The notes below the pieces were generated by a model. The model had not been told where the DNA came from. It worked only from the letters and a program-made list of their open reading frames with translations, and made no database searches. Shown here piece by piece: positions 21,880 through 64,000 of a DNA stretch of 64,000 nt. Position numbers and translations under genes: made by a program. Position 1 is the stretch's first letter. Each line of letters begins with the position of its first letter. This DNA comes from Desulfobacterales bacterium (GTDB lineage Bacteria; Desulfobacterota; Desulfobacteria; Desulfobacterales; JBGLNM01), in NCBI GenBank assembly GCA_041299705.1, contig JBGLNM010000001.1:281763-345762 (forward strand), read 5' to 3'.

Positions 21880-23571
21880 TCAGAGATCGGCGCGCATCAA
21901 TGCCATAAAATCCGCGAAGCCCTCCGTTTGACGCACGCGCTCGGACATCAGCGGGTTCCGGAACAGGCGGGCGATTTCCGAGCCGATCTCCAGCTGCGCG
22001 CCCGGGTCATGGCTGGCGGTGAGAACCAGGAAGATCACGGTTGCGGGCTTGCCGTCCGGTGCGTCGAAATCGATCCCCTCCGGGGACACCCCGACCACGA
22101 CCAGCGACTCCCGCAGGCCCTCGACGCGGGCATGGGGGAGCGCCACCCCGTTGCCGATGCCGGTGCTCAGGGCTTCCTCGCGTCCAAGGACGGCCGCCTC
22201 CACCACGGACGCGTCCAGCGCCTCCGCGGCGCACGCCGCCGCCGTCATTTCGCGGATGGCCTCCGCCGGGGAGGCCGCCTTGAGCTTCCGCATGAAAAGT
22301 TTCGGGGAGAGCAGATCCTGCAGCCGCGACCGTCTTTCCGTGCGCAGAACCTGCCGCATGGCCGGACCGCTGACCGTCGAGGTGACGATGGCCATGACGA
22401 TCAGGGCGACGAACAGCCGCTGGCCGATGATCCCCGCTTCCAGGGCGATCATCCCGATGATGATTCCCATCGCGCCCACCGAAAGCATGGCAAAACCCAC
22501 CGCCCCGGCCTCCCTGCCGGGCAGCCCCCCCCACCGGGCCCCGATGGCGCCGCCGGCGAATTTGCACACGCAGGCGATCACCGTCACCAGACCTACCAGA
22601 GCCGGGTCGAAATGGGCCCAGAAGTTCACCTTGAGTCCGATTCCGGCAAAAAAGAGCGGCGCGAAGACCCATGAAACGAAATCTTCGATGATCACCCGGC
22701 TGCGCTCCCGCAGATGCGGCGAATCGCCCACGGCCGCTCCAACGACAAAGGCCCCGAAGATGGCATGGATGCCGATCCATTCCGTAAATGCGGCCCCGAG
22801 AAGGCCCAGGACGATGGCGAAACTCAGCTCGCCCCCCGGCCGGCGGGTGTAAGCCTGGATAATCGGCAGGGCCTTGTGAATCAGCCAGCGCCCTAAAGTG
22901 AGCATGGCGGCGGTGAATGCCAGCGTGGCTGAAACCGTCAAGGCAACGGGAAGGCCGCCGCCTGACGGCCGGCCGATAAGCCCCAGCAGGACGGCGAAAA
23001 CGATCCAGCCCACCAGATCGTTGAAAACCGCCGCGCTGACGACCACCATGCCCAGGTCGCTGCGGTAAAGGCCCAGGTCCATGAGGATCTTGACGATGAT
23101 GGGCAGGGCCGAAATCGACACGGCGACCGCCACGAAAATCGCGAACGTCCACGGGTCGGCACCCGAGTGGCGGCCCAGCACCTCGGGAAAGGCCAGGGCA
23201 ACGGCCAGGGCGACGGAAAAGGGGACGACCACGCTGGCGACCCCCACCTTGCAGCCGACCCGGCCCTGCTTCCAGACGGTCGACAGGTCGACTTCCATCC
23301 CCGCCGCCAGGAGGAAAAGCACGATCGCCAGGTTCCCGATGGCGTCCAGAACAGCGGCGTTCAGGCCCTGGAGGGGGAAGAGGTAGGCATTCAGACCCGG
23401 GGCGACGCTTCCCAGGACCGTCGGGCCGAGAAGAACCCCGGCGAGCAGTTCCCCCAGCACCGCCGGCTGCCGCAGGCGCCGGGCCGATTCGCCCAGCGCG
23501 CGCGCCGCAGCGAGCAGAACCCCCAGGGAAAGCAACAGCGCCACCATATGGTGGGAGGTCAGGGCTTGCAT
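21880..23571 (-). CDS. Cation:proton antiporter (CPA2) fused to a C-terminal PTS EIIA(Ntr)-like domain
   Basis: RQPAVLGELLAGVLLGP, multiple TM segments, VFNDLVGW, FAPLFFAGIG; EIIA motif REEALSTGIGNGVALPHAR. Confidence 0.88.
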   Translation of the reverse strand: MQALTSHHMVALLLSLGVLLAAARALGESARRLRQPAVLGELLAGVLLGPTVLGSVAPGLNAYLFPLQGLNAAVLDAIGNLAIVLFLLAAGMEVDLSTVWKQGRVGCKVGVASVVVPFSVALAVALAFPEVLGRHSGADPWTFAIFVAVAVSISALPIIVKILMDLGLYRSDLGMVVVSAAVFNDLVGWIVFAVLLGLIGRPSGGGLPVALTVSATLAFTAAMLTLGRWLIHKALPIIQAYTRRPGGELSFAIVLGLLGAAFTEWIGIHAIFGAFVVGAAVGDSPHLRERSRVIIEDFVSWVFAPLFFAGIGLKVNFWAHFDPALVGLVTVIACVCKFAGGAIGARWGGLPGREAGAVGFAMLSVGAMGIIIGMIALEAGIIGQRLFVALIVMAIVTSTVSGPAMRQVLRTERRSRLQDLLSPKLFMRKLKAASPAEAIREMTAAACAAEALDASVVEAAVLGREEALSTGIGNGVALPHARVEGLRESLVVVGVSPEGIDFDAPDGKPATVIFLVLTASHDPGAQLEIGSEIARLFRNPLMSERVRQTEGFADFMALMRADL

Positions 23572-39975: not shown

Positions 39976-41769
39976 ATGACCGCCATGACTTCAACAAAGG
40001 GACCGCCTGCGCCGTCCGCAACCTCGCGGCGGGACGCCCCCAGCCTGCTGCCGTTTTACGGCATCGGGATCTTGGCCACCACCATCGGCATCGCCGTGGT
40101 GATCCTGTTGAACTTGTTCACCCCGCTGGAAGTCATCCCGAAGCACATCGCTGGACTCCGCCGCCTTTCCGATTGGGACGCCGATGCCTACGGCGTTTTC
40201 GGGCTGCGCTTTGCCGCGATTCTGGCGGCTGCCTACGGCCCCGTGATCGCCGCCCTCCGGCTGGCGCTCCGGCCGGTGGCCGCCTGCCTGAGGCGCTTTG
40301 CCCTCGGGCAGGACCCGCCGCCGGGGCTCCTGGCCCGGGGCCGGCGCCGGCTTCTCAACCTGCCGTTCATCTTCATCCCCGTCAGCATCGGGTTCTGGGT
40401 CGCCATCCCGGGTGCCATCGCGGCCGGGGCGTTCGCGGCCGGGGACCTGGGCGGCCGGACCGCCGCCATCCTCGCGTTCCGGGCCAGCATGATCGGCCTG
40501 ATCGTTTCCACGGTCTGTTTCCACCGCATGGAGTCCTATTCCCGCCGGCGCTTGATCCCGCTTTTTTTCCCGGCCGGGGGACTGAGCACCCTCGACGGTG
40601 TCGCGCGGATTTCCATCGACCGGCGCATCCGGCTCCTGTTCCGCCTGGGCGGGGTCGTGCCGATGCTGATCCTGATCGTGACGCTCCTGACCCTGCAGTG
40701 GGAGGTCGGCTCCGCCGCCATCACGGCCGAGGAGTACGGCCGCGGCATCCTGGTGTTCACCCTGGTGCTGGGGGCCTATTTTTTCGTCGCCGGGGGGGTG
40801 ATCCACCGTGCGGTGAGCCGCAGCATCGCCCGCCCCCTGGGGGAGATCATCCGCGTCCTGCGGCGTGTAGCGGGCGGAGAGTTCGACCAGCAGGTGCGCG
40901 TGGTTTCCAACGACGAGATCGGCTACACCGGGGACGTGATCAACCAGATGACGGCCGGGCTGCAGGAGCGCGAGCGGCTGCGCCGCTCCCTGGAGCTGGC
41001 CATGACGGTTCAGCAGCGCCTGCTGCCGGCGGCCGATCCGCGGATCGAGGGCCTGGACATCGCGGGGCGAAGCGTTTACTGTGACGAAACCGGGGGGGAC
41101 TATTTCGATTACCTGGCTTTGGACGACGCCGGCCGGCAGGGGCTCGGCATCGTCGTGGGCGACGTGTCGGGTCACGGGATATCGTCCGCCCTGCTGATGG
41201 CCAGCGCCAGGGGATTCCTGCGCCAGCGGGCCGTTCTCGGAGGCGGCCCGGCCGACATCGTGGCCGACGTCAACCGCCAGCTCTGCCTCGATGTCGCCGA
41301 CTCGGGCAGCTTCATGACCCTCTTTCTCCTGCTGCCGGACCCTTCCGGCGGGCGGCTGCGCTGGGTGCGGGCCGGACACGAACCGGCCATCTGCTACGAA
41401 CCGTCCGCCGACCGCTTCACCGAGCTCAGAGGCGCCGGCGCCGCCCTGGGGATCGACGCGGCGGCTCTTTTCGAAGACTGCACACGGGAGGCGGTCACCG
41501 GCGGCACCATCGTCCTGGTTTGCACGGACGGCATTTTCGAGGCCCGCAGTCCCGGGGGCGAGTTTTTCGGGCGGTCCCGCGTGCAGGCGCTCATGCGCCG
41601 CCATGCCGGCAGGCCGTCCCGCGACCTCGTGGAGGCGGTGACGGCGGCGGTGGCCGCATTCCGCGGCCGGGACGCCGCGGAGGACGACCTCACCCTGGTG
41701 GCGCTCAGGTTCCAACCCAAGGAGGCGAAACCTTGCTGCACCCGAATCCGGACTACGTCCAGGAACTGA
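39976..41769 (+). CDS. Membrane HAMP + SpoIIE (PP2C/RsbU-like) phosphatase
   Basis: Several TM segments, VSNDEIG (HAMP), TGGDYFD, VGDVSGHG, RAGHEP, TDGIFE, EDDLT. Confidence 0.88.
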   Translation: MTAMTSTKGPPAPSATSRRDAPSLLPFYGIGILATTIGIAVVILLNLFTPLEVIPKHIAGLRRLSDWDADAYGVFGLRFAAILAAAYGPVIAALRLALRPVAACLRRFALGQDPPPGLLARGRRRLLNLPFIFIPVSIGFWVAIPGAIAAGAFAAGDLGGRTAAILAFRASMIGLIVSTVCFHRMESYSRRRLIPLFFPAGGLSTLDGVARISIDRRIRLLFRLGGVVPMLILIVTLLTLQWEVGSAAITAEEYGRGILVFTLVLGAYFFVAGGVIHRAVSRSIARPLGEIIRVLRRVAGGEFDQQVRVVSNDEIGYTGDVINQMTAGLQERERLRRSLELAMTVQQRLLPAADPRIEGLDIAGRSVYCDETGGDYFDYLALDDAGRQGLGIVVGDVSGHGISSALLMASARGFLRQRAVLGGGPADIVADVNRQLCLDVADSGSFMTLFLLLPDPSGGRLRWVRAGHEPAICYEPSADRFTELRGAGAALGIDAAALFEDCTREAVTGGTIVLVCTDGIFEARSPGGEFFGRSRVQALMRRHAGRPSRDLVEAVTAAVAAFRGRDAAEDDLTLVALRFQPKEAKPCCTRIRTTSRN

Positions 41770-48805: not shown

Positions 48806-50366
48806 GGGTGACATTTTCCTGGGCGGTGGCGATGCCGGCCTCGAATATGTCGCGCAGCGACTCCGAAATGGCCTCCTCCTTGAGGCGCTCCAGGCGGGTG
48901 AGCTCGCTGGCGAGGGTCTTGCGCCGGATGGCGTACCCGCTGACGGATTCGGCCGTGTAGATGCCGCTCAGGACGACCCCCCTGGCCGCCTGGGCCGTCT
49001 GCACGGCCAGCTGCATGCCGTTGCTCTTGATGAGGTCGCGCAGGAAGGTGATATCCGCTTTGCGGGCGTCGTCCGGCACCCCTGCCGAAAGAGCCTCCAG
49101 AACGGCCATGGGATCCCGGGGGGGCGGGGCGTCGTCCGCCCGGGGCGGCGGGGGCGCGCCAGGCGGCGCCTGGGGGAACTGGCGGCTGACGGCCTGCCAG
49201 CTTTCCTCCAGGGCTTGCGCGTGGTCGGCGGGGGTCACGATCCCCGAAAGCGCCAGGCGGAAACCGAGGTCCCGCGCGCCGAAAGGCCCGTCGTCTATGT
49301 AAAAGGGCATCTCCTCGCGGCGCCCCGGCATGATCCCGTTCTGGTCCTTGAGGTAGCTGCCGCCCTTGGCCACGAAACCGCCGGCGCTGCCGTGCAGGCG
49401 CCAGCCGGTGGTGTAGCGGAACAGGTCGAAAACGATCTCCGCCGCATTGCCGGCCGTGTCGTAAAGGCCAAGGGGATTGGGGCACTTCGAGCCGATCCAG
49501 GCCAGGGTTTCGGGCGGCTTGGCGGCGGCCGTGTCGGTGAAAACGGCAAAGTCGTGGATGCTCCGGCCGTCGAGGGGGAAGAAATCGTTGCTGCCCATGA
49601 AGGACTCGGGGACCATGTGCCCGCCTCTGGCCGCGAACTCCCACTCCTCCTCGGTGGGCAGGCGCAGATAGGCGAACCGCCCCCCGGAGAAGACCGGCAG
49701 GGAGTCCGGGGCGTTGTGCACCAGCCACTGGGTGTAGCGCCGTGAAAACTCGACCGCGTCGAACCAGGAAACGCCGGTTTTGGGGCGGGGGTCTTCACTG
49801 TTCAGGGGCCTGACCTCCCCCGGGCAGTGCTCTTCCATGACGGCCTGCCACTGGAAATTCGTCACCTCGTACTTGCCGATGAAATAGTAAAGGCCGGTGA
49901 AGGCGCCCGCTTCCGGTCCCGGGCAGTACCCGTCCCCGCTGCGGGCCAATTCCGTGAGCAGGGCGCGCCACTTCCCGGGCAGGTCGGCCAGCAGGAAGGG
50001 GCCGGAGATGGCCGCCTGGCGCCGCTCCTCCATGAACCGCCGCTCGCTGCTGCCGCAGTTGATGCACCCGGGCTCAAAAGGCAGGTCGCCGAGCAGGCCG
50101 GCGGCCGGCACGCACACGTGGCGCAGCACCATCTTCGCGCCGCAGGGCATGGGCAGTTCCAGGTCCCCGTCGGCCGGAACCGGGTTGAAGGGCTCGGAGG
50201 GGGCGGGGATGGTCTGCGGCAGCCTGCTGCGCGAGCGGGGGCACTCCTGGGAACCGGCCGGAGCGGGCATCAGGCCCCACAGGGCGGCGGCGATGCCCAG
50301 CACGAAACACAACACCCCTGACGCCCCCCGGCGGGCGGCACCCTCGGCCCGCGCCCTTTCACACAT
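48806..50366 (-). CDS. FGE-sulfatase (SUMF1) domain exported protein, TagR-like; C-terminus probably cut at a junction
   Basis: Signal-like N-terminus, LPMPCG, FIGKYEVT, RLPTEEEWEFAARGG, NPLGLYD.AGNAAE, GFRL. Confidence 0.8.
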
Positions 50367-51597
50367 CTCGAATCACCTCCGACGGCTCGATCCTGGACAC
50401 CCGGTACGCGGCGAAAGCGGAGGCCGCAGCCCCCATGGCCGCGGTCAGGGCGACCGCCAGGACGAGGTGGCCCGGGGCCAGGCGGCAGACGTATTCGCCT
50501 TCGGAAAGGTACCGGCCGAACAGCCCGTTGATGGCAAGCGCCACGACCCCGTAAAGGGCGAAGGCGGAAAAGGTCCCCAGCAGGCTGGTGGCCAGGGACT
50601 GGACGATGGGAAAGCAGACGATGCTGCCGGTGGAAAACCCTATCAGGCGGATGATCCCCAGGTAGCGGCTCTTGCGGTTGACGTTGGCCAGGGCGCTGCT
50701 GGCCATGGAGGCGAAGTAGCCCGCAACGGCCACCAGGGCGATGAGGCCGAATATCAGGCCGAGGGAGCGGTCCAGGCTCCGGACCACTTCGATCTCCTCG
50801 GCCCGGGTGTAGATTTCCAGCCCCTGCCCGTTCAAGAGGTCCCGCAGCCGGGCGACGTCGTGGACCCCGCGGGCATACAGGCGGAAGCTGGGGTAGACGC
50901 GCTCCCCCTCCGGGAGCACGGGTCCGGGCCACCCGTAGGCGGGCACGCCGAACCCGTCGCGGTAGTCCTCGGTCGCCTGGAGCAGTTCCAGGCGCACGAA
51001 AGCCGCTTCGCGCTGAAACGCCTCGAGAGGCAGGACGGCGACGACATCCAGCTCCACCTGCACCTGCTCCTTGACCCCCTTCACCGCGCGGCCCACCAGC
51101 CCGAAGACTTTCCCGCCCTCGGAGGCCCCGAGCTTCCGGGCAGCCGGCTCGGTGAGGACCAGGTCCGCGCGGGCGGCCGGGACCCGGGCCCATTTGAGCA
51201 GCAGCGGGTCTCCCTCGGCGGTGGGGATCAGGTCGACCGCCACGGTGCTGGACCGGTCCCCCAGGCCCGCGCGCAGCACCATGTTGGCGGCGATGGAGCG
51301 GGTCTGGAAGATCACGAACGCCGTTTCGGGCCGGCGCGAGAGGGTGTCGAGCCAGGCCGCGTCGAAGCGGCCGGAGCCCACCGGCGAAATTTCGAGGTTG
51401 CGCGGGTCCCGCAGGAGGCGCTCGGTCATGGTGTCGATGATGCCGCTCTTGAGGCCGAAGAGCACCAGCAGGGGCGCCAGCACCGCCGCCAGGCCCATGA
51501 CCGCGCAGGCGGACAGCAGGCGTTCGTGCAGGTAGTCGCTCAGAGACAGGCGCGCCACCGTTTCGACGCCGGCGCGCTGGCTTCGGTCAGCGCTCAC
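50359..51597 (-). CDS. FtsX/MacB-like ABC permease, TagS-like
   Basis: APLLVLFGLKSG...RLLRDPRNLEI, FRLYA..VHDV, IIRLIG, RIEPSE; GTG start overlapping an upstream TGA. Confidence 0.8.
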   Translation of the reverse strand: MSADRSQRAGVETVARLSLSDYLHERLLSACAVMGLAAVLAPLLVLFGLKSGIIDTMTERLLRDPRNLEISPVGSGRFDAAWLDTLSRRPETAFVIFQTRSIAANMVLRAGLGDRSSTVAVDLIPTAEGDPLLLKWARVPAARADLVLTEPAARKLGASEGGKVFGLVGRAVKGVKEQVQVELDVVAVLPLEAFQREAAFVRLELLQATEDYRDGFGVPAYGWPGPVLPEGERVYPSFRLYARGVHDVARLRDLLNGQGLEIYTRAEEIEVVRSLDRSLGLIFGLIALVAVAGYFASMASSALANVNRKSRYLGIIRLIGFSTGSIVCFPIVQSLATSLLGTFSAFALYGVVALAINGLFGRYLSEGEYVCRLAPGHLVLAVALTAAMGAAASAFAAYRVSRIEPSEVIRDV

Positions 51598-51635
51598 GCA
51601 GCCTCCCCGCCCACCGTCGCCCGAACACATCCGCA
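51594..51635 (-). other. Probable last codons of an upstream ABC ATPase gene (TagT-like)
   Basis: VRATVGGEAA* ends in a GTGA overlap with the permease start; recalled to resemble TagT C-termini. Confidence 0.3.
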
Positions 51636-51639
51636 GCCG

Positions 51640-51975
51640 TATCGAAAAGAGGTCACGAAATTCCACCCCCCGTGGCTCACGGCGACGGACCATCCCTTCG
51701 CGCGGCGCGCCATGTCCGCGCTCCGGCGCATCGGGCAGAGCCCGGAGGTGCGATACTGGAAATTCGGCACCGACGGCAGCATGAGCGCCGCGCTCCTGGG
51801 AATCCCCACCATCGGGTACTCCGGGACCGAGGAAAAATATGCCCACACGCCCGAGGAGCGGGTCAGCATCGACATGATGGTAAAGTCCCTCGAGGGATAC
51901 CACGCCATCCTGGCCGATCTGCTGGCGGCTGACCCGTCATGCGGATGGAGTGCCGCCCCCCCTGCCCGGGTCTGA
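51640..51975 (+). CDS. M20-family (YgeY/ArgE-like) hydrolase, C-terminal fragment
   Basis: KFHPPW, YWKFGTDG, GIPTIGY, AHTPEERVS. Confidence 0.75.
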   Translation, partial: YRKEVTKFHPPWLTATDHPFARRAMSALRRIGQSPEVRYWKFGTDGSMSAALLGIPTIGYSGTEEKYAHTPEERVSIDMMVKSLEGYHAILADLLAADPSCGWSAAPPARV

Positions 51976-54109: not shown

Positions 54110-55351
54110 TCAGCCGGCCGGCTCACCGGGCGCGCAAGCGCCTCCGGTATACTCGATCGCCAGCAGGCTCATGTCGTCCTCCGGCGGGGTCGCGCCGCGA
54201 AGCGTCCTGGCGCGCTCGAACAGCGCGTCGACCCAATCCTGAAGCCCGGGCCGGCGGGCATCCCCCAAGTGCCGGTAAAACCTCTCCTTGCACTCCCCCC
54301 CGCTGCCCACGCCGAAATTGTCGATCAGCCCGTCGGTGCAGAGAATGAAGCGGTCGCCGCGTTCCAGCCGGCGCTCCTCCTGGCCGAAGGGCGTGCCGAA
54401 GCCCGCGCCGATCACCGTCCCGTGGCGTTCCAGGACCTCCAGCCGCCCGTCGGACCTCAGGATCAGGGGCGGAACGTGGCCGGCATTGCTGTAGACCAGC
54501 CGGCCGGTGCCGGTGTCGAGCGTGGCGCAGGCGATGGTGAAGTAGCAGTCGAAACGGTCCAGGGGGAATGCGCTGTCCAGGCGGCCCATGACCTCCTCGG
54601 GGCTGAACGGCCTGCCTGTCTGGCGCATGCGGCTGTGCAGGCTGTGGAGGAACTGGGAGACGGTCACCGCCACCAGGGCCGCGGAGACCCCGTGGCCGCA
54701 AACATCCAGCACGTAGAGGCTGAGCCGGTCCTCGGCGTTGAGGTAGATCTGGAAAATGTCGCCGCCGATCCGGCTGCAGGGCTCGAAACGCCAGGCGGCG
54801 CGGGTGCCGGGGAGGCTGGGCGCCTTGTCGGGCAGAAGGCTTTTCTGGATCTCGTAGGCGGCGGCGAGATCCCGGTCGATCTGCTCCTTTTTCTTTTCCA
54901 GCTCTCGCTTCTGCCTTTCCCTCTCTGTGAGGTCGTAGATGATCACCAGGGTCATGCGGCGGCCCCTGAACCGAATGCGCCGGGCGCTGAACTCCAGAAA
55001 TTTCGTGACCGGCCGGCCGTCGATGTAAAAGACCCGTTCCAGGCGCCTGCGGTCCACGGGGGCAGCTTCCATCAGGGTCTGGATCAGGGTTTTCTTGAGC
55101 ACGCAGTTAGCGCACTGGGACGTCTCGCCGCAGGACTTTTTTTCCAGCACCGCATTGACGCAGCCCGCGACCCGGCCGAAGGAACCTCCGCCCTGGAACC
55201 CGCCGGCACGGTCGAACAGCCCCAGGAAGCTCCTGTTGAACTGGTGGATCTGCAGTTTTTCGTCGGCGACCAGCACGGCGGCATCGATGTTGTCCAGCAG
55301 CAGGTTCAGAAATTCGCTCGATTCCTTCAGGTCGTCGAGTTCGATGGGCAT
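54110..55351 (-). CDS. Cytoplasmic PAS-like + SpoIIE (PP2C) phosphatase
   Basis: IGGDIF, LDVCGHGV, NAGH.PP, TDGL, EDDMS; Cys cluster in GCVNA...CGETSQCANC. Confidence 0.87.
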   Translation of the reverse strand: MPIELDDLKESSEFLNLLLDNIDAAVLVADEKLQIHQFNRSFLGLFDRAGGFQGGGSFGRVAGCVNAVLEKKSCGETSQCANCVLKKTLIQTLMEAAPVDRRRLERVFYIDGRPVTKFLEFSARRIRFRGRRMTLVIIYDLTERERQKRELEKKKEQIDRDLAAAYEIQKSLLPDKAPSLPGTRAAWRFEPCSRIGGDIFQIYLNAEDRLSLYVLDVCGHGVSAALVAVTVSQFLHSLHSRMRQTGRPFSPEEVMGRLDSAFPLDRFDCYFTIACATLDTGTGRLVYSNAGHVPPLILRSDGRLEVLERHGTVIGAGFGTPFGQEERRLERGDRFILCTDGLIDNFGVGSGGECKERFYRHLGDARRPGLQDWVDALFERARTLRGATPPEDDMSLLAIEYTGGACAPGEPAG

Positions 55352-55737
55352 GGGACCTCGCTTTGCCGTGTCACCGTTTCCGGGATTGACTTGCCCCGGC
55401 TGCCGCGGCGGGAATGGGCGAAGCCTTCCCCCGCGCTCCCGGGGCATGCTAACCGCCGGGCCCCGGAAAAGCCTTGACCCAAGTCAAGCAGGCGTGCGCG
55501 CCGCACCGCTTCCATCATTGTGCCCATCCCCGGCAGCCTGTCAAGTCCTGGTTGCGGATGGCTTTTCCCCAAACCCCCGCGCGAAAAATGCTGAAAATGC
55601 CGATTCACTTGACGCCGCGACGGCTATCGGGTATGGGGATCATCGTCGGGCAAAAGACAGCCGGGCCGGGTTCGCCTTCACGGGGAAAGCGGTTGCGCCC
55701 GGGGGCACGGGGATGCGGCACGACCGCCAGGGTGCAT

Positions 55738-58044
55738 ATGCTGCGCAACAGACACCTGATCTTTTTCTCCCTTGCCCTCGTGCTGTTTGCGCACCCGGCC
55801 CACGGGCAGGACGGCGACCGGCTCGGCAAAAAGCACGTGCTGCTGCTCAACTCCTACAACAAGGGCTACACGTGGACCGATGCGGAGACCGCCGGCGTCG
55901 AGGCCGTTTTCGCGCCTCACCCGGACATCGTCCTGCGCGTCGAGTACATGGACGCCAAAATCCTGAACAGCGATGCCTATTACCAACGCCTCAAGGACCT
56001 CTACGCCCTCAAGTACGCCCGGCACCCCTTCGACGTGATCGTCTCCACCGACGACGACGCCTTCAATTTTCTCGTCCGCTACCGCGACGAGGTCTTCGCC
56101 AACACCCCGGTGGTGTTCTGCGGGGTCAACGACTTCGACCCCTCCAGGGTCGCCGGCTTTCCCCTCTGCACCGGCGTGAATGAATCCGCGGACTTCAGGG
56201 CCAACCTGGCCCTCATGGCACGGCTGCACCCGGGCGGCAGGCGCGTCGTCGTCATCAACGACAGCCTGACGACGGCGCGCTCCCTGCGGGCCGAATTCGA
56301 CGCGGCGGCGGCCGGGTTCAAGGAGCGCTTCGAATTCGTCCACGTCGACGACATCCCGATGGAGGATCTTCTCGACCGGCTCAAACGCCTCCCCGGCGAC
56401 AGCCTGGCCTTCTACCTTTCCTTTTTCAGGGACGGCGCCGGCCGGGCCTACGCGCCGGAGGAGGCCCTGCCGGCCATAGCGGCCGCCGCGCCCGTGCCGG
56501 TTTACGGCGCCGTGGACTACATGCTCGGAAACGGCATCGTCGGCGGCATGCTCAAGAGCAGCCGCTACCAGGGGGAGACCGCAGCCAGGCTGGCCCTCAG
56601 GATCCTGCGGGGCGAACCGGTGGGCGCAATCCCGGTGGTCACCGCCAGCCCCAACCAGTACATGTTCGATTACCGCCGGCTGAAGCCCTTCGGCATCCGC
56701 CTCTCGGAGCTGCCCGCAGGCAGCCTCATCGTCAACGAGCCCCAGACTTTCTACTACAAGTACAGGAAGATGATCTGGGCCGCCTTCGGCGTCTTCTCCA
56801 CCATGGCGCTCTACATCGTCTTCCTGCTGTTCAACATCCGCAAGCGCATCCGCGCCCAGCGGGGCCTGCAGTCCATCATCGGCATGACGGCGTCCATTTT
56901 CGACTACCACTCCCTCAAGGGCTTCAAGGCGGAACTGGTGGCCCGCCTGAGCACCCTTCTGCCCCTGAAGTCCGATCTGCGCCTCTTCAAATGCGTCTCG
57001 AACCCTGGGGGCCGGGAAAAGACCCTGGTCCCGGTGGATGCGGAGCCGGAGACCGATGCCGCTGCCGCCGATGCCGGGCTTTCACCCCAGGCCGAGGAGC
57101 TGATCGCGTGCTCCATGCGCGAGGAAAGGTGCCTGGTGAAGCGCAGGGACGCCGTGGCCTTCATCCGCAGCGACTACTCGCCCGGCAGGCTGGTGTTTTT
57201 CAGGGGCAGGAAATATTTCGACGCCCTCGACCGGGACCTGCTTGAAATCTTCGCCAACACCATCTCCATGTCCATCGAAAACCTCCAGAAGCTCAGGATC
57301 GAGGAATCGCTGGAAACCGCCCGGCGCATCCAGATGAGCATGCTGCCGACATCCTTCGGGGAGTTTTCACGAAAATTCGACCTGGACCTGTTCGCCTATC
57401 TCCTGCCGGCCAGGGAGGTGGGGGGGGACTTCTACGATTTTTTCGCCATCGACGAAACCCGCCTCTGCGTCACCGTGGGGGATGTGTCTGACAAGGGCAT
57501 ACCGGCGGCGCTCTTCATGTCCATGACCAAGAGTCTGATCCGGGTGGCGGCGGAGGGCAACCCCTGCCCCGAAAGGATCCTGGCCAGGGTCAACGACGAG
57601 CTGAGCCGGGAGAACGAACAGTCCATGTTCGTGACGGTTTTCGTGGCCGTCCTGGACCTGGGAACCGGGAGGCTGGCCTACGCCACCGCCGGCCACTCCC
57701 CGCCCTACATCATGGAGGCCGGGGGCGGTTTCCGCAAGCTCACCACCCCAACGGACGTCGCCCTGGGAATCGTCGAGGGGGCGGCGTATCGCTCCCGCGA
57801 AACCCGCCTGGGCCCGGGCGAGGGGCTCTTCCTCTATACCGACGGGGTGACCGAGGCCGCCAACGGCACAGGTGAGTTTTTCGACGAGAAGAACCTGGAA
57901 GCGGTGCTGGGCGTCAACGGCGGCGGCGCCTCCAAGGCCCTGATCGAAGCGGTCACGGACTCGCTGCGCGGGTTTGTCGCCGATGCGCCCCAGTCGGACG
58001 ACATCACGATGCTCTGCATCCGGAGAAACGGCCATGCCCGCTGA
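55738..58044 (+). CDS. Membrane sensor phosphatase: periplasmic ABC-substrate-binding-like domain, TM, DUF3369-like linker, SpoIIE (PP2C)
   Basis: Signal peptide; VLLLNSY, PVVFCGVN; TM MIWAAFG...; DRDLLEIF...ENL; VGGDFYD, GDVSDKG, AGHSPP, TDGVTEA, QSDDIT. Confidence 0.87.
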   Translation: MLRNRHLIFFSLALVLFAHPAHGQDGDRLGKKHVLLLNSYNKGYTWTDAETAGVEAVFAPHPDIVLRVEYMDAKILNSDAYYQRLKDLYALKYARHPFDVIVSTDDDAFNFLVRYRDEVFANTPVVFCGVNDFDPSRVAGFPLCTGVNESADFRANLALMARLHPGGRRVVVINDSLTTARSLRAEFDAAAAGFKERFEFVHVDDIPMEDLLDRLKRLPGDSLAFYLSFFRDGAGRAYAPEEALPAIAAAAPVPVYGAVDYMLGNGIVGGMLKSSRYQGETAARLALRILRGEPVGAIPVVTASPNQYMFDYRRLKPFGIRLSELPAGSLIVNEPQTFYYKYRKMIWAAFGVFSTMALYIVFLLFNIRKRIRAQRGLQSIIGMTASIFDYHSLKGFKAELVARLSTLLPLKSDLRLFKCVSNPGGREKTLVPVDAEPETDAAAADAGLSPQAEELIACSMREERCLVKRRDAVAFIRSDYSPGRLVFFRGRKYFDALDRDLLEIFANTISMSIENLQKLRIEESLETARRIQMSMLPTSFGEFSRKFDLDLFAYLLPAREVGGDFYDFFAIDETRLCVTVGDVSDKGIPAALFMSMTKSLIRVAAEGNPCPERILARVNDELSRENEQSMFVTVFVAVLDLGTGRLAYATAGHSPPYIMEAGGGFRKLTTPTDVALGIVEGAAYRSRETRLGPGEGLFLYTDGVTEAANGTGEFFDEKNLEAVLGVNGGGASKALIEAVTDSLRGFVADAPQSDDITMLCIRRNGHAR

Positions 58045-58825
58045 GAACGACGCGACCGAAGCCGGCCGCGCATCGGGGAAGGTTCTCGACCTGCCCTGGC
58101 GCAGCGCCAAGCCGAGGCGATCCGGGCTGACGGCCATCACCGACAACGGCATCCCGGCCGGCGAGCTGGCCCTGATCCTGGAAAGCTACCACCTGTTCAT
58201 CGACCTGGCCAAGATCGGGGTCGGGTCGGCGTACCTGGAGCCCAGGCTCGGCCAGAAGCTGCGTCTCTACGGGGACTTCGGCATCCCGGTCTATTTCGGC
58301 GGCACCCTCTTCGAGAAATACCACGCCCAGGGGCGCCTGGACGCTTACCTGCGGTGGCTCGAGTCCCTGAAGGTTTCGTGGCTCGAGGCATCCAACGGCA
58401 TCACCGCCGTCGCCACCGAGGAGATGGCCGGCCTGATCGGGAAGGTCGCCCGCCATTTCAACGTCCTGGCCGAGGTGGGGAAAAAAAAGGCCCGCGAGGG
58501 GCTGTCCCCGGGCGAATGGGTCGCGGCGGGCCGCGCCTACCTCCAGGCCGGCTGCCGCTACGTCGTGCTGGAGGGGCGCCACACGGCGGATGTCGGCATC
58601 TACGACGCGGGCGGAACCCTGCTGACCGGCCTGGTCAAGCGCATCACCGCGGACATCGACCCGGTCAGGATCATCTTCGAGGCCCCCACGGCCCACAGCC
58701 AGAACCAGCTCATCAACCTCATGGGAACCAACGTCAACCTCGGCAACGTCTTTGTCCGCGACCTCCTCCTGCTCGAATCCCAGCGCCGGGGGCTGCGGGA
58801 GGAAACGTTCTTCATTGGCGGATAG
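58034..58825 (+). CDS. comA: Phosphosulfolactate synthase (ComA/CoM-biosynthesis protein A family)
   Basis: KPR..GLT...D.G, IDLAKIG.GS, GGTLFE, EASNG, EVGKK, LEGR, IIFEAP, NVNLGNV, LESQRRGLR.ETF. Confidence 0.85.
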   Translation: MPAENDATEAGRASGKVLDLPWRSAKPRRSGLTAITDNGIPAGELALILESYHLFIDLAKIGVGSAYLEPRLGQKLRLYGDFGIPVYFGGTLFEKYHAQGRLDAYLRWLESLKVSWLEASNGITAVATEEMAGLIGKVARHFNVLAEVGKKKAREGLSPGEWVAAGRAYLQAGCRYVVLEGRHTADVGIYDAGGTLLTGLVKRITADIDPVRIIFEAPTAHSQNQLINLMGTNVNLGNVFVRDLLLLESQRRGLREETFFIGG

Positions 58826-59345
58826 CAAAACGGCCCTGGTGCGGCATTTTTCGACCCGCTACAACCGCGAGGGGCGGCTGCAGGGCCGGCGCGACATCCC
58901 CATCGCGGGCCCCGACCCGGGGGAAAAGGCGGCCATGGCCCGCAACCGGGACCTGCTGGCCCGCATCGGGCCCTTCGAGCGCGTGCTGGCCAGTTCACTG
59001 CAGCGCACCCGGATGACCGCCGCCTGCTACGGCTTGGCTTACCGGGTCGAGCCGCTCCTGGACGAACTGGATTTCGGCCCCTACGAGGGCTGGTCCCGGG
59101 CCGACTTCATCCGCGCCGTGGGGCCCCTCTGGTACCAGGCCCCCCAGCGCCTGACCCTGGGCGAGCCGCTGACCGCGCTCCAGGAACGCATAGAACGCTT
59201 CGCAGCCCGCTACAGGGCCGACGCCCGGGTCCTGGCCTTCGGCCACGGGGCCTGGATCCGGGCCTTTGTCAGCCTGCACCGTTTCGGCACCATCGCCCGC
59301 ATGAACCGGTTGCGGGTGGACAACAACGACATCGTGGTGGTCTGA
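58815..59345 (+). CDS. Histidine phosphatase (phosphoglycerate-mutase-like family)
   Basis: LVRHFST..N...RLQG..DIP, SSLQRT..TA, LDELDFG.YEG, FGHGAWIR; TTG start overlaps the comA stop. Confidence 0.85.
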   Translation: MADSKTALVRHFSTRYNREGRLQGRRDIPIAGPDPGEKAAMARNRDLLARIGPFERVLASSLQRTRMTAACYGLAYRVEPLLDELDFGPYEGWSRADFIRAVGPLWYQAPQRLTLGEPLTALQERIERFAARYRADARVLAFGHGAWIRAFVSLHRFGTIARMNRLRVDNNDIVVV

Positions 59346-59384
59346 CCGCGCGGCCCCGTTCCCCGCCCCATCCAAGGAGTCGAC

Positions 59385-60809
59385 ATGACGGCAATTCCGC
59401 CCGGCCCGGCGGGCCTGATCGCCAACAAGCCCCTGGCCTGGCTCCTGGCCCTGACCGTGCCGCCGGCCTTCTTCCTTGCGGCCCTGCACCTGGGCGTCAC
59501 CCGCAGCACCGCCCTTTTCCTCTCCATTGTCAGCGTGACCCTCGTCCTGTGGATGTTTTCCCTGATGGCCGACTTCATCCCGGCCCTGATCGCCCTCCTC
59601 CTGCTGCTGCTCTTCGGCCTGGCGCCCGGCGAGGTGGTGCTGTCCGGTTTTTCCTCCGGCACCTTCCTCATCGCTTTCAGCGTGATGGGCCTGGGGGCGG
59701 TCATCACGGCTTCCGGGCTCGCGCGGCGCTACACCCTTTGGCTGCTCAAGACGATCCCGCCCTCCGCCGCCTCCTACCAGGCCGCGCTGTTCTTCACCGG
59801 CTTCGTGTTCAACCCCGTGGTCCCCGCCATCACCGGCCGGGCCGTGATCGTCGGCCCGATCCTGAACCACATCGTCCAGTCGCTGGATGAAAAGACCCGC
59901 CGGCAATCCTCCACCCTGCTTTACCTCGGCGGGCTGGACAGCCTCAATTACCTCTCCCCGGTCTTTTTGACCGCGGCCCCGGCCAACCTCATGCTCTTCG
60001 GCCTCTTCCCGCCCCAGGAGCAGCAGACCTTCCAGTTTCTCTTCTGGCTGTATGCGGCCTCCATCACCGGCGCGGTCATGCTGGTCCTCTACTTCGCCGC
60101 CTCCGCCGCCTTTTTCCGCCCCTTCGGCAGGGTCGAGGTCGACCGCCAGGCCGTCGAGCGGGCCTGGAAGGGGCTGGGAAAAATGAGCTGGCAGGAGCGG
60201 GCCGCCCTTTTCGGGATCGCCCTGCTGGCGGCAGGCGTGGCCACCGCCGGGCTGCACAAGATCCCCATCCCCCTGGTCACCTTCGGCGTGATCTGCTCCC
60301 TGCTGACGGTGGGGGCCCTGCCCAGGGAGGAGTTCGTGCGGGGGATCGACTGGGCCTTCCTGTTCCTGCTGGCCAGCATGATCGGCATCCTGGAGGGCAT
60401 GAAGTACCTGGGCCTCGACGCGCAGCTGGTCCAGCGCCTCGGCTGGCTGCAGGGCTACATGCGCCAGGACTTCGCGCTCTTCGTGCCGGTCCTGTCCGCC
60501 GCCATCCTCGTGGTGCGCCTGTTCGTCCCCCTCAACTCCGCCATCCTGATCTTTGCCGCGACCCTGATCCCCCTGGCGTCCGGGGCCGGGATCAGCCCCT
60601 GGGTGGTGGGCTTCGTGATCCTCATCATGGCGGAAACCGCCTTTTTCGGCTACCAGTCGCCCTATATCCTCTTTTTCAGAAACCTGACCGCGGCCTGGGT
60701 CCCCTACAACGAGACCCGGGTGCGGATGTTTCACGCCATCCTGGTGGCGGTGAAGCTGCTCGCCATCTACGCTTCCATCCCCTTCTGGCGGGCGATCGGG
60801 GTGCTATGA
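59385..60809 (+). CDS. SLC13/DASS (ion transporter superfamily) anion permease
   Basis: About 12 or more TM segments, SGFSS.TF, LTAAPANL, IDWAFLFL; AAGGAG RBS. Confidence 0.8.
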   Translation: MTAIPPGPAGLIANKPLAWLLALTVPPAFFLAALHLGVTRSTALFLSIVSVTLVLWMFSLMADFIPALIALLLLLLFGLAPGEVVLSGFSSGTFLIAFSVMGLGAVITASGLARRYTLWLLKTIPPSAASYQAALFFTGFVFNPVVPAITGRAVIVGPILNHIVQSLDEKTRRQSSTLLYLGGLDSLNYLSPVFLTAAPANLMLFGLFPPQEQQTFQFLFWLYAASITGAVMLVLYFAASAAFFRPFGRVEVDRQAVERAWKGLGKMSWQERAALFGIALLAAGVATAGLHKIPIPLVTFGVICSLLTVGALPREEFVRGIDWAFLFLLASMIGILEGMKYLGLDAQLVQRLGWLQGYMRQDFALFVPVLSAAILVVRLFVPLNSAILIFAATLIPLASGAGISPWVVGFVILIMAETAFFGYQSPYILFFRNLTAAWVPYNETRVRMFHAILVAVKLLAIYASIPFWRAIGVL

Positions 60810-61852
60810 GAAAGGAACGGCTCAGCCAAGCCCTGTGCCTGGTCTTCCTGGCGGCCATCCTGGTGGCCGGGGTGGCCTTCAATGCGTCCAAGCCCCGGGT
60901 GATGATCCTTCACAGCTACGACCCGGAGTATGCCTGGAGCCGGGACATCGACGTGGGGCTGCACCGCGTCGTCGACAAGTGGCACGACTGTTCCGTCTCG
61001 TGGCACTACATGGACACCAAGAAACACCCCGACCCGCAGTGGCTGCGGCGCGCGGGGATCATCGCCCGCAGGGCCGTCGCCCGCAACTCCCCGCACGTGC
61101 TCATCGCCGTCGACGACCTGGCCCAGGAACTGGCCGCCCGGCACTTCGTCGACGATCCGCGCATGGACATCGTTTTCGCCGGCGTCAACGCCGGCATCGA
61201 GCCCTACGGCTACCACCGGGCCGGCAACGTGACCGGGATCCTGGAGCACAAGGTTCTCAAGGCCGTGCAGGAAACCATCCTGGCCATCAGATCCCGGGGC
61301 CGCCCCCCCCTGGAAGCCCCCCGGATGCTCTACATCCTCGACACGTCCGAGTCGCTGCTCTCGGACCGGCGGCTGGTCGACGCCTTCGACTGGTCCCCCG
61401 TCGACTACCGGGGCTCCCACGTCGCCGGGAGCTTCGAACACTGGAAAGAGATCGTCCGGACCCACGGCCCCTCGGTGGATTACATCCTGGTGGCCAACTA
61501 CCGCAAGCTGCCGCGATCCGACGGCGACCCGACCCTCGCCGACCCCGGGGAGGTCATGGCCTGGACCGACCGCCATTCGCCCGCCCCGGTCATCGGCATC
61601 AACGCCTTCAACGTCGAGGACGGCGCCATGCTCGCGGTGGGGCCCTCGCCCTTCGAGCAGGGCGAGGTGGCCGCCACGCTGGCGCGGCGCATCATCGACG
61701 AGGGCATCCGCGGCGGCCGGATCCCCGTTCAGGAAAACAGGCAGTACATCGTGGCCATGCGCCAGGAGGCCATGAGCCGGCGCGGCCTGAGGCTGCCCAT
61801 GATCTACGAGGCCTACGCCTACTTCCTGAGCCTGACGCCGCAGGGCGACTAG
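60806..61852 (+). CDS. Exported ABC-substrate-binding-like protein, homologous to the sensor domain of 55738
   Basis: N-terminal anchor; VMILHSYDPEYAWS, IAVDD.A, IVFAGVN, SPFEQGE.A; ATGA overlap with the permease. Confidence 0.75.
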   Translation: MRKERLSQALCLVFLAAILVAGVAFNASKPRVMILHSYDPEYAWSRDIDVGLHRVVDKWHDCSVSWHYMDTKKHPDPQWLRRAGIIARRAVARNSPHVLIAVDDLAQELAARHFVDDPRMDIVFAGVNAGIEPYGYHRAGNVTGILEHKVLKAVQETILAIRSRGRPPLEAPRMLYILDTSESLLSDRRLVDAFDWSPVDYRGSHVAGSFEHWKEIVRTHGPSVDYILVANYRKLPRSDGDPTLADPGEVMAWTDRHSPAPVIGINAFNVEDGAMLAVGPSPFEQGEVAATLARRIIDEGIRGGRIPVQENRQYIVAMRQEAMSRRGLRLPMIYEAYAYFLSLTPQGD

Positions 61853-62049: not shown

Positions 62050-63069
62050 TCACGCCAGCCTTGCGTCGAAGGGCGCCAGCCGTCGGAGCAGCTGCGCGGA
62101 CTCCTCGGCTTCGAAGTACGGGTAATCGATCAGCGCCTTCAGCTTGCCCCGGAACCCGGGGTAGGACCGGCGGGCGTCCGCGCCGTAGTAGAGGCGCCGG
62201 TGCCGGCCTTCCAGGGCGCGCACGAACCCCGCGTAGGACGGCAGCGCGCAGGGTCCGTCGCCGTGGCCGAACAGGTCGAGCAGCAGGCGTGTGAGCAGCA
62301 GGATGCAGCCCACGTCCTCGATGCGCCGGGAGGACCTCTCGAACTGCCGGTAGCGGGACACGACGTGGCCGAAGTGGACGATACTGCCGCCGGCATCCAG
62401 GCACCGGATGCGGCCGGGCGAAGTCCGGCGCTGGGCGTAGAGGAAGGTGTCCATCACGCAGCGTCTGCCGTCGATCACGTCCGCCCGCGGGCGCAGGTCG
62501 CTGGGGGAAAACGACCTGGCCCAGGCCACGTCGACCATCATCTCCCAGGTCGCCACCAGGTGGCCCGTTCCGGGCAGGCCGCTCCAGTCGTATCCGCTCC
62601 AGGGCCGCGCGATGCCGCACGCAGCCAGCCGATGCCGCATCTGCCGGTGGATGCCGCACAAAAAGTCCGGCTTTAAAGGGAAAAGGTCGACATCGTGAAG
62701 AAGGGCCGCCCGACTCGCGACGGACTCGATCGCGTTGACGATCTGGAGGAAGTGGATCGTGCTCGGCGAACCCAGCATCCGGCGCACCAGGCGATCCCGG
62801 GGCTTCATTCGAACCAGCCTCAGAGCGATGCCGCCGCGCGTGCGGGCCTTCCCGCGCACGTAACGCTCGAAACGCGGCAATACGGCGTCGGGGACGACCA
62901 GGATCTCACGCAGGCCGGCCTTCTCCTGCCGATCGAGCACCCGCAGGGAGAGGTCGAGCCAGCAGGGAAGATCCGGCGGGGTCAGGATGAGAAAGGCGTA
63001 GCCCCCCGCGGACAGGGGCGCAGGTTTCCGCCAGCGGGGGTATGCCAGCGACCAGAGCCTCTCCCTCAT
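62050..63069 (-). CDS. Hypothetical protein, possible GT-A glycosyltransferase-like fold
   Basis: ILVVPD, ALLHDVDLF (DxD-like). Confidence 0.5.
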   Translation of the reverse strand: MRERLWSLAYPRWRKPAPLSAGGYAFLILTPPDLPCWLDLSLRVLDRQEKAGLREILVVPDAVLPRFERYVRGKARTRGGIALRLVRMKPRDRLVRRMLGSPSTIHFLQIVNAIESVASRAALLHDVDLFPLKPDFLCGIHRQMRHRLAACGIARPWSGYDWSGLPGTGHLVATWEMMVDVAWARSFSPSDLRPRADVIDGRRCVMDTFLYAQRRTSPGRIRCLDAGGSIVHFGHVVSRYRQFERSSRRIEDVGCILLLTRLLLDLFGHGDGPCALPSYAGFVRALEGRHRRLYYGADARRSYPGFRGKLKALIDYPYFEAEESAQLLRRLAPFDARLA

Positions 63070-63108: not shown

Positions 63109-64000
63109 CTAGGCCAGGCCGGCCATGGGCAGCAGGATGTAAAGGCCGGCCCAGATGACCAGCGCGCCCAGGATGTCGAAGAAAATGCCGGCCCGGATCA
63201 TGGCCGTTATCGGCACCATCCCCGAGCCGTAGACAATCGCGTTGGGCGGCGTGGAGACCGGCAGCATGAAACCCCAGCTGGCTCCGAAGGTCGCACCGAT
63301 GGCCGGGGGGACGGGGTTGACGCCCGCCGCCTGGGCGAGGGCTATCATGACCGGGATGACCATGTTGGCCGAGGCGGTGTTGGAGGAGGTTTCACTGACG
63401 AGGATGGCGATGAATATCGCTCCCAGGGTGATGCCCCAGACCGAGGTCGCACCGCTCATCTTCAGGAGGCCGGCACCGATGGCCTCGGCCAGCCGGGTCT
63501 GGAACATCATCGAGCCGAGGGTGAGGCCGCCGCCGAAGAGCAGCAGGGTCCCCCAGTCGATCCTGGCCGCCTGTTTCCAGGAAATGGTGAACTCGCGCTT
63601 CTTCCAGTCCACGGGGAGCAGAAAGAGCAATGCGGCGCCGATGACGGCGGCAACCCCCTCCGGGATCCTGCTGCTGTAAGCCCCGGCCAGCGGCGACGCC
63701 TCCCCGTAAACGAGGGCCAGGATGCCGGGAACCAGCCAGAGGACCACGGTGACCAGGAAACAGAAAAGCGCATTCTTCTGCCCCCGCGTCCACTTGCCGA
63801 GCTGCGCGCGCTGCGCGGCCACGAACCCGGTGCCGCCCTCGACCCTGGCGACTTCGGGCCTGTGGAGGAAGTACATCAGGAAGTAAAGGAGCGCAAAGAG
63901 CAGGACCAGCAGCGGGAGGGAAAAGCTCATCCAGTGGAAAAATGCGATCTTTACGCCGCAGAGCTTCTCGATCATGGCGATGCCGATCAGGTTCGGCGGG
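63109..64000 (-). CDS. DASS/SLC13 sodium-coupled anion symporter; runs off the window end
   Basis: PPNLIG at the window edge, IDWGTLLLFGGG, ETSSNTAS, FMLPVSTPPNAIVYG. Confidence 0.9.
   Translation of the reverse strand, partial: PPNLIGIAMIEKLCGVKIAFFHWMSFSLPLLVLLFALLYFLMYFLHRPEVARVEGGTGFVAAQRAQLGKWTRGQKNALFCFLVTVVLWLVPGILALVYGEASPLAGAYSSRIPEGVAAVIGAALLFLLPVDWKKREFTISWKQAARIDWGTLLLFGGGLTLGSMMFQTRLAEAIGAGLLKMSGATSVWGITLGAIFIAILVSETSSNTASANMVIPVMIALAQAAGVNPVPPAIGATFGASWGFMLPVSTPPNAIVYGSGMVPITAMIRAGIFFDILGALVIWAGLYILLPMAGLA

Follow-up and report, generated by a model that had tools for sequence, protein, structure and literature searches.

What does a bacterium gain from keeping a gene for a ComA-family (2R)-phospho-3-sulfolactate synthase next to genes for a sensor phosphatase and a membrane transporter? 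The question is raised by five genes at positions 55738 to 61852 of a stretch of 64,000 nucleotides (hereinafter referred to as the window) from contig JBGLNM010000001.1 of a Desulfobacterales bacterium. A previous sequence-only reading of the window took them for an operon that makes sulfolactate and moves it across the membrane under the control of an extracellular signal, for instance as an overflow route for sulfite. The operon proved to be real, conserved, and hitherto undescribed. Its best explanation, to which we assign a probability of about one half, is a single operon that combines sulfolactate synthesis with a carrier for the uptake or recapture of sulfolactate, both under one sensor. 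Of the earlier interpretation, the protein assignments, the lack of coenzyme M (CoM) genes nearby, and sulfolactate synthesis were supported; transport of sulfolactate by the permease was not established, and excretion became less likely.

Layout and conservation of the operon

Five co-oriented open reading frames (ORFs) were found, listed here with product lengths in amino acids (aa):

55738-58044, plus strand: gene 1, membrane sensor PP2C phosphatase, 768 aa (PF04392-like, DUF3369, and SpoIIE domains)
58034-58825, plus strand: gene 2, ComA-family (2R)-phospho-3-sulfolactate synthase, 263 aa (PF02679)
58815-59345, plus strand: gene 3, histidine-phosphatase-superfamily enzyme, 176 aa, TTG start (PF00300)
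59385-60809, plus strand: gene 4, divergent permease of the DASS/SLC13 fold, 474 aa (PF00939; AlphaFold2 model and Foldseek)
60806-61852, plus strand: gene 5, membrane-anchored PF04392-type substrate-binding protein, 348 aa (AlphaFold2 model and Foldseek)

All ORFs first proposed were recovered, and independent gene calls on two NCBI contigs of metagenome-assembled genomes (MAGs) gave five identical products (768, 263, 176, 474, and 348 aa). The five protein assignments likewise held, by Pfam matches and, for gene 5, by a structure model searched with Foldseek. Overlaps of 11 bp were present at both the gene 1/gene 2 and the gene 2/gene 3 junctions, and genes 4 and 5 overlapped by 4 bp (ATGA). 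The gap between genes 3 and 4, previously given as 40 bp, measured 39 nt and contained a ribosome-binding site (AAGGAG) ahead of the ATG of gene 4; the TTG start codon of gene 3 was preceded by GGAGG. The guanine-plus-cytosine (GC) content was even across the cluster (0.65-0.68), and that of the source organism was 67%. No convincing terminator was detected within the cluster, where the weak matches were in total within the expectation from shuffled sequence, and an Rfam scan of the whole window returned no element.

To place the operon among its relatives, loci were collected by a scan with a ComA alignment, limited to one genome per species, which yielded 80 loci; further loci (all carrying L numbers) were added by gene 5-based searches. 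This survey of comA neighbourhoods, which the sequence-only reading had proposed, found all five genes together in 16 further loci, so that the earlier reading's own ground for refutation, an order kept in no relative, does not apply. At least four gene orders were observed. The order of the window (PP2C, ComA, histidine phosphatase, DASS, binding protein) recurred in L001-L003, L086, L092, L094, and L095, and also in L090, where the DASS ORF was truncated. The other orders were PP2C-ComA-DASS-binding protein-phosphatase (L024), PP2C-DASS-binding protein-ComA-phosphatase (L085), and ComA-PP2C-DASS-binding protein-phosphatase (L096 and L099). Flanking genes varied in every lineage. Because the gene content was retained through at least four orders while the flanks differed, there is good evidence, from comparison of gene order, that the five genes are functionally linked.

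The hosts of the five-gene set belonged to the Desulfobacterota and to sulfur-oxidising Gammaproteobacteria. Named carriers were MAGs labelled Desulforhopalus, Desulfobacula, and Desulfotalea, as well as Candidatus Thiodiazotropha and Endothiovibrio diazotrophicus; the others included several metagenome contigs. The label of sulfur-cycling anaerobe for the host of the window would be an extrapolation from these other carriers.

ComA and the histidine phosphatase

Gene 2 matched PF02679 at 210.4 bits (cut-off 25.2; profile positions 3-242 of 243). Among PDB sequences, its best match was Bacillus subtilis YitD (1U83, E = 9.5e-39), ahead of ComA from M. jannaschii (1QWG, E = 8e-31), and it lies in a bacterial ComA subfamily nearer to YitD. 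It was one of 21 aligned relatives that had 43 invariant columns in common. In a rough neighbour-joining tree, most ComA sequences from loci with the shorter permease type (class B, described below) formed one clade, and the Thiodiazotropha-type sequences sat apart, for which reason the ComA-phosphatase pair may have been recruited more than once.

Gene 3 scored 81 bits against PF00300 (His_Phos_1), its only Pfam match; in NCBIfam, only histidine-phosphatase models were matched, and the protein was not a member of the ComB family. Its best sequence matches were TIGR03162 (66 bits) and T. thermophilus structures of the 1V37 type (about E = 1e-12). The catalytic positions R9-H10 (as RHF), R64/R66, E84/E91, and H144 aligned with those of the T. 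thermophilus phosphatase. Gene 3 thereby has the catalytic Arg-His, Arg, Glu, and His in common with CobC alpha-ribazole phosphatase and dPGM-type enzymes. Unlike CobC, however, it is partnered with ComA and not with cobalamin genes, it scored far under the cut-off of the CobC model (66 against 163 bits), and its family signature was RH[L/F/M]xT instead of the near-universal RHG of the superfamily; the position of the Gly was occupied by Phe in gene 3 and by Leu in 62 of 78 family members. Databases gave members of this family generic names, such as "histidine phosphatase family protein", "PhoE", or "phosphoglycerate mutase".

In 77 of the 80 loci, the gene immediately after ComA was a gene 3 homologue, and one of the three exceptions had a different histidine phosphatase two genes away. 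The pair was distributed over Bacillota (Bacillaceae), Bacteroidota (Saprospiraceae and Flavobacteriales), Verrucomicrobiota, Myxococcota (Myxococcales), Pseudomonadota, and others. ComA relatives at 43-48% identity were found in operons with genes for 3'-phosphoadenosine 5'-phosphosulfate (PAPS) reductase, ATP sulfurylase, and adenosine 5'-phosphosulfate (APS) kinase; in Bacillaceae, these followed the pair on the same strand in 54, 47, and 46 loci, respectively. Such a Bacillaceae operon would encode every step by which sulfate becomes sulfite, sulfite becomes phosphosulfolactate, and the latter loses its phosphate. Since the pair was adjacent in nearly all loci and was joined in Bacillaceae with sulfate-to-sulfite genes, gene 3 is most likely a phosphosulfolactate phosphatase, that is, a non-homologous stand-in for ComB. 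The same strong context upheld the earlier proposal that ComA and the phosphatase together most likely make sulfolactate. A reverse, desulfonating role of ComA was rejected, as the Bacillaceae pair stands downstream of sulfite-producing enzymes and no kinase is present. No report linking ComA with a histidine phosphatase was found in the literature searched, whose coverage was incomplete.

If this assignment is right, it gives a name to an enzyme labelled only generically in hundreds of genomes, and it would explain sulfolactate synthesis in the surveyed Bacillaceae and other taxa in which the conserved comA neighbours include no member of the ComB family. Sulfolactate is known to originate from the breakdown of sulfoquinovose and 2,3-dihydroxypropane-1-sulfonate (DHPS); to these sources, sulfate reducers and sulfur oxidisers could be added as candidate producers.

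The nearest known system is yitCD (ComB and ComA) with yitBA-yisZ of B. subtilis, in which a bacterial ComA and a phosphatase likewise serve sulfolactate accumulation and not CoM synthesis (PMC517825). There, the phosphatase is ComB, and sulfolactate amounts to approximately 5% of the spore dry weight (PMC517825). The ComA-phosphatase pair and sulfate genes of the surveyed Bacillaceae mirror this arrangement, with ComB in the place of the phosphatase in B. subtilis. The operon of the window differs from it in that its phosphatase belongs to the histidine-phosphatase superfamily, that it contains no sulfate-activation genes comparable to yitBA-yisZ, and that nothing in B. subtilis corresponds to its carrier, binding protein, and PP2C sensor. 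With the archaeal ComABCDE and Xanthobacter XcbABCDE pathways it has in common the first step, in which ComA or XcbB forms phosphosulfolactate from phosphoenolpyruvate (PEP) and sulfite (PMC9457059). Unlike in those pathways, ComC, ComDE, and XcbC-E were not found nearby, the phosphatase is unrelated to ComB, and ComA scored below the archaeal cut-off. By these comparisons, the synthesis half appears to be the B. subtilis sulfolactate route with a different phosphatase, and not a CoM cluster.

Genes for possible further steps were observed beside the pair in some lineages. An ATP-grasp gene followed ComA and the phosphatase in L041 (Saprospiraceae; 11375-12559) and seven other loci, Bacteroidota among them, and an AMP-ligase-like gene lay between ComA and an RHG-type histidine phosphatase in L063 (Rhodospirillales MAG; 10744-12794). 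These neighbours hint at sulfolactate-derived products. In L068, a record titled Bacillus subtilis strain DE0224, a histidine phosphatase gene and not yitC stood beside comA; the phosphatase clustered at 90% identity or more with a protein of Lederbergia ruris, and the species label of the record therefore looks doubtful.

Permease, binding protein, and sensor

Gene 4 matched PF00939 (Na_sulph_symp) at 72.5 bits (cut-off 27) and CitMHS at 58 bits. Its AlphaFold2 model had a predicted local distance difference test score (pLDDT) of 85.6, and Foldseek returned query-normalised TM-scores of 0.77-0.85 to NaDC3, AtDiT2.1, NaCT, NaS1, and VcINDY, with AtDiT2.1 as the top match (0.85); structural matches to the TRAP proteins SiaQM and IseQM were weaker than those to DASS proteins. 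The Asn motifs of the hairpin tips were recognized as APANL (residue 198) and PLNSA (residue 382). The score against the TIGR00785 subfamily was below the cut-off (78.5 against 198.6 bits), and the PDB sequence search gave nothing at E ≤ 0.01. By its family match and modelled fold, gene 4 is a member of the DASS family, called divergent on account of these two results. Its identity to the permeases of related class B loci was 52-66%.

Gene 5 matched PF04392 weakly (23.6 bits, just under the cut-off of 25.9). The AlphaFold2 model (pLDDT 89) contained an N-terminal membrane helix (aa 2-27) followed by a two-lobe binding-protein fold, and the top Foldseek matches were the PF04392 proteins 3LKV, 3LFT (Trp-bound), and 6HNI/6HNJ. 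A DASS gene was located directly upstream on the same strand, mostly with a stop/start overlap, in 71 of the 76 gene 5 homologues with enough upstream sequence. The five exceptions comprised two sensor domains, one broken permease gene, one inverted order, and one true exception.

The permease-binding protein pairs fell into two classes. In class A (approximately 50 loci), the permease was about 610-635 aa long, carried an N-terminal cyclic-nucleotide-binding domain, and had at most 41% identity to gene 4; PP2C was absent, and no conserved neighbour from sulfur metabolism was found. This family was seen in L108 (1524-3368) and about 50 other metagenome loci (L104-L169), with a PF04392 gene after each permease, and L159 contained two such pairs, each with a cyclic nucleotide monophosphate (cNMP)-binding domain on the DASS permease, in tandem. 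In class B, the permease was about 465-475 aa long, and a PP2C sensor gene lay ahead wherever upstream sequence existed (17 loci and the window). Class B loci additionally encoded either ComA and the phosphatase (16 loci and the window) or a Sulfotransfer_3 enzyme (six loci). The sulfotransferase variant occurred in L087 (10082-10978), L101, L103, L105, L106, and L107, including the purple sulfur bacterium Lamprobacter modestohalophilus, and was usually followed by RsbW-like and STAS genes. Class B permeases were also found in Desulfobacter vibrioformis, Desulfobacula phenolica, Halochromatium, Rhabdochromatium, and other Chromatiaceae, and the named class B carriers were consistently sulfate reducers or sulfur oxidisers. 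The long DASS proteins (750-806 aa; P0306 and P0305) of L096 (7722-10004) and L099 (7530-10004) were considered as fusions with a binding protein, but their N-terminal extension had the look of a signal peptide, a charged, repeat-rich, coiled-coil-like stretch, and a transmembrane segment.

Because the PP2C-DASS-binding protein core occurs with a sulfotransferase and the pair also occurs alone, the transporter is, by these gene contexts, a module of its own, whose substrate need not be the product of the neighbouring pathway. The earlier claim that the permease moves sulfolactate is not established, given the same distribution. Gene order and predicted folds suggest that the permease and binding protein may be coupled in a single secondary carrier that depends on the binding protein. 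That elevator-type secondary carriers can work together with binding proteins is described as an emerging theme, and it is the binding protein that directs such transport towards uptake (PMC12344293). An anchored binding protein translationally coupled to the permease argues for uptake, and the excretion or overflow proposed earlier is therefore less likely.

As in TRAP (DctPQM and TAXI), TTT, and TAXI-GltS systems, a binding protein is translationally coupled to an elevator-type permease of the kind driven by ion gradients, and the membrane domain of TRAP has the DASS fold as well (PMC12344293). In contrast to TRAP, the permease is an ordinary DASS protein lacking a DctQ-like component, and a weak DctM hit was found in some relatives only. 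The binding protein, unlike those of TRAP, TAXI, and TctC, is of the PF04392 type, otherwise known from ABC systems and sensors, and its coupling to the permease is deduced here from gene order. A pairing of DASS with PF04392 was not reported in the literature searched, the coverage of which was again incomplete. If the coupling is real, it would add a further class to the binding-protein-dependent secondary transporters, a topic opened recently by TAXI-GltS, and this candidate class carries two built-in regulatory designs, namely a fused cNMP-binding domain and a PP2C sensor.

The sensor, gene 1, was composed of the following parts:

aa 1-22, plus strand: signal peptide
about aa 30-335 (nt 55825-56742), plus strand: periplasmic PF04392-type binding domain
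aa 345-367 (nt 56770-56838), plus strand: transmembrane helix
aa 372-517 (nt 56851-57288), plus strand: DUF3369
aa 573-763 (nt 57454-58026), plus strand: SpoIIE/PP2C domain (PF07228, 173.6 bits)

The metal-binding motifs of PP2C phosphatases were present (GGDFYD, GDVSDKG, TDG, and SDD), and PDB sequence matches were to the PP2C domains of RssB, Rv1364c, and SiaA. Identity to the sensors of related loci was 46-52%. The periplasmic domain had 26% identity to gene 5 over 318 aa (E = 2e-9) and is by this similarity a paralogue of the co-encoded binding protein; at 31 of the 106 positions at least 90% conserved among class B binding proteins, at least 80% of the sensor domains had the identical residue. 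In L088, the sensor domain belonged instead to a histidine kinase, encoded beside a protein with receiver, DUF3369, and PP2C domains; this is a split version of the fused sensor.

RsbW-like and/or STAS genes adjoined 12 related loci, and the STAS proteins contained the phospho-serine motif DY[IVM]SSAGL. From this adjacency, we infer that gene 1 belongs to a partner switch of the RsbU/RsbW/RsbV type; in their standard form, such switches combine a sensor phosphatase with a kinase and a STAS protein (PMC11619594, PMC8256260). The SpoIIE/PP2C sensor and the neighbouring RsbW/STAS genes of the relatives resemble chlamydial RsbU and Pseudomonas SiaABCD. The sensor domain, unlike in RsbU switches, has the PF04392 fold and is a paralogue of a transporter subunit encoded in the same operon. 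Unlike RsbU and SiaABCD, no sigma factor or diguanylate cyclase output was encoded nearby, and no kinase or STAS partner was found in the window. Neither a sigma factor nor any other output gene was conserved near the cluster in relatives. The target of the switch could be the permease, and the output may accordingly be a transporter or a metabolic pathway instead of a sigma factor.

Three SpoIIE-type PP2C sensors were encoded within 18 kb of the window, at 39976-41769 (plus strand, with HAMP), at 54110-55447 (minus strand, with PAS), and at 55738-58044 (plus strand, the binding-protein type). The divergent PAS-PP2C gene was rejected as a part of the system, as its matches in relatives fell only on the paralogous PP2C domain.

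Proposed function, alternatives, and neighbouring genes

In the proposed mechanism, ComA would join sulfite to PEP to give (2R)-phosphosulfolactate, and the histidine phosphatase would strip the phosphate to yield (R)-sulfolactate, doing the job of ComB without kinship to it. Since the sulfate-activation genes of Bacillaceae are absent from the cluster, the sulfite is proposed to come from the host's own sulfur metabolism. The elevator-type DASS permease and the anchored PF04392 protein would form a binding-protein-dependent carrier of a divalent anion, which would take up or recapture sulfolactate, the sulfonate analogue of malate, and the cell may accumulate it as a solute or reserve, in parallel with the sulfolactate of B. 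subtilis spores. Uptake or recapture is favoured for three reasons: the uptake directionality that binding proteins confer (PMC12344293), the likeness of sulfolactate, as a sulfonate analogue, to the C4-dicarboxylates moved by DASS carriers, and the transporters, of MFS and TauE type, that adjoin the ComA operons of Bacillaceae. Through its copy of the binding protein, gene 1 would sense an external ligand, either that of the binding protein itself or a related one, and would act on a partner switch by removing the phosphate from an RsbV-type STAS protein, the counterpart of an RsbW-type kinase. The genes for kinase and STAS protein flank the cluster in relatives and would be elsewhere or missing in this genome.

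Several observations weigh against this reading. In its synthesis half, gene 2 scored only 172.9 bits against the archaeal ComA equivalog TIGR03849 (cut-off 280), the supply of sulfite is an assumption, and L088, from a Nitrospirae MAG, has a four-gene version with no adjacent phosphatase gene. As for control, tblastn found no RsbV/STAS or RsbW homologue in the 64-kb window. Most of the contrary evidence concerns the carrier. In six loci, a sulfotransferase replaces ComA and the phosphatase beside the PP2C-DASS-binding protein core, and in about 50 loci the pair is alone, with a cNMP-gated permease. Furthermore, at 67 of the 106 conserved class B binding-protein positions, at least 80% of the class A proteins agree with class B, and since the two classes share most of these positions, the ligand of the carrier may be a common one, such as a sulfur oxyanion, and not sulfolactate. 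The conserved acidic residues D103, D104, E147, and D179 of the binding protein were also unexpected for a purely anionic ligand. Because the core serves a sulfotransferase elsewhere, stands alone in class A, and shares its conserved positions between classes, sulfolactate is a weak choice of substrate for the carrier; a role in oxyanion supply is nearly as likely as sulfolactate uptake, and export fits the binding protein least.

In the supply role, the core would import a sulfur oxyanion (sulfate, thiosulfate, or sulfite) with high affinity and under regulation, and ComA with the phosphatase, or the sulfotransferase of other bacteria, would be exchangeable consumers of that sulfur; sulfolactate would be produced but not carried. 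It accounts for the association of the core with two enzymes that add sulfur groups, ComA and Sulfotransfer_3, and for the binding proteins, which in the two variants resemble gene 5 (50-54% identity) about as much as ComA-type members resemble one another (53-60%). The DASS family includes sulfate carriers, NaS1 being among the top structural matches, and a dedicated sulfur supply recurs in the sulfate-to-sulfite genes of the Bacillaceae ComA operons. Sulfate and internal sulfite or APS are, however, plentiful in marine dissimilatory sulfur bacteria, and the named carriers are dissimilatory sulfur bacteria, mostly marine, for which a dedicated binding-protein importer to serve a side pathway would seem superfluous. 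No sulfur-metabolism neighbour is conserved beside the class A pairs, and where the ligand of a top PF04392 structural match is known, it is an aromatic amino acid, as in Trp-bound 3LFT, and not an oxyanion; on balance, we regard the supply role as a rather unlikely explanation of the whole operon. In sulfur bacteria of the kinds that harbour the cluster, sulfite is a toxic intermediate, which would favour sulfolactate as a sulfite sink or excreted organosulfonate, exported or exchanged by the permease on an external cue. Some DASS members are indeed exchangers, AtDiT2.1 as the best structural match is in keeping with this, and the Bacillaceae operons do adjoin MFS and TauE-type carriers. In 71 of 76 cases, however, the permease comes with an anchored binding protein, and such proteins are described from uptake systems alone (PMC12344293); the sulfotransferase and stand-alone cNMP-gated variants are also ill-suited to a sulfite valve, and export is accordingly judged improbable.

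That the cluster starts the synthesis of CoM or of some other compound derived from sulfolactate (cysteate or a sulfonolipid, for instance), with the remaining genes elsewhere, is very unlikely. ComA followed by dephosphorylation does open the archaeal CoM route (PMC9457059), and the ATP-grasp and AMP-ligase genes after the pair in Bacteroidota and the Rhodospirillales MAG suggest that sulfolactate is processed further in some lineages. Yet no ComB, ComC, ComDE, or XcbC-E family was detected among the approximately 49 Pfam-scanned ORFs of the window, which bears out the earlier statement that comB, comC, and comDE are missing from it, nor was any found among the conserved Pfam-annotated neighbours in related loci; the conserved partners are a carrier and a sensor and not further enzymes. 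A chance assembly of neighbours with unrelated functions is hardly credible, in view of the overlapping start and stop codons and of a gene set kept across phyla through at least four rearrangements while its flanks differ. Beyond sulfolactate uptake under one sensor, which is still preferred for this operon, a wider proposal is advanced tentatively, with the odds somewhat against it: DASS permeases with anchored PF04392 proteins would form an unrecognised class of binding-protein-dependent secondary transporter, gated after translation either by a fused cNMP domain or by a PP2C/RsbW/STAS switch with a sensor domain copied from the carrier's binding protein, and wired here to a sulfolactate pathway with a new phosphosulfolactate phosphatase, unrelated to ComB and present in many phyla.

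Upstream of gene 1, one further feature was considered:

55448-55737, no strand: intergenic region of 290 bp between the divergent PAS-PP2C gene and gene 1

It presumably holds the promoter of the operon. A promoter scan of the region gave a single sigma-70-like match, on the minus strand, and no usable promoter. The two MAG contigs matched the window at 99.9% identity from 51639 to the window end and differed upstream of that point, which marks a rearrangement, an insertion, or an assembly breakpoint. An M20 peptidase gene was full-length in the MAGs (L081 100-1371), and only its last 110 aa or so were left in the window (at 51639, with 49897-51975 on the plus strand).

Downstream, two genes lay convergent to the operon (window 62050-63069 and 63109-64000, both minus strand). 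One encoded a second and more canonical DASS permease (517 aa in L081; Na_sulph_symp 120 bits). Along the plus strand, the permease gene comes after that of a 339-aa protein without a Pfam hit, which was unrelated to the gene 5 binding protein. The two genes were rejected as parts of the system, as neither was kept beside the cluster in relatives. Farther away, two very large proteins of 1007 and 1397 aa with PPDK_N or PEP-utilising domains were encoded at 9976-12999 and 13215-17408 (minus strand), one of which had a weak, sub-threshold match to the response-regulator receiver domain. An EIIA-2 domain of the phosphotransferase system (PTS) fused to a Na+/H+ exchanger was encoded at 21880-23571 (minus strand).

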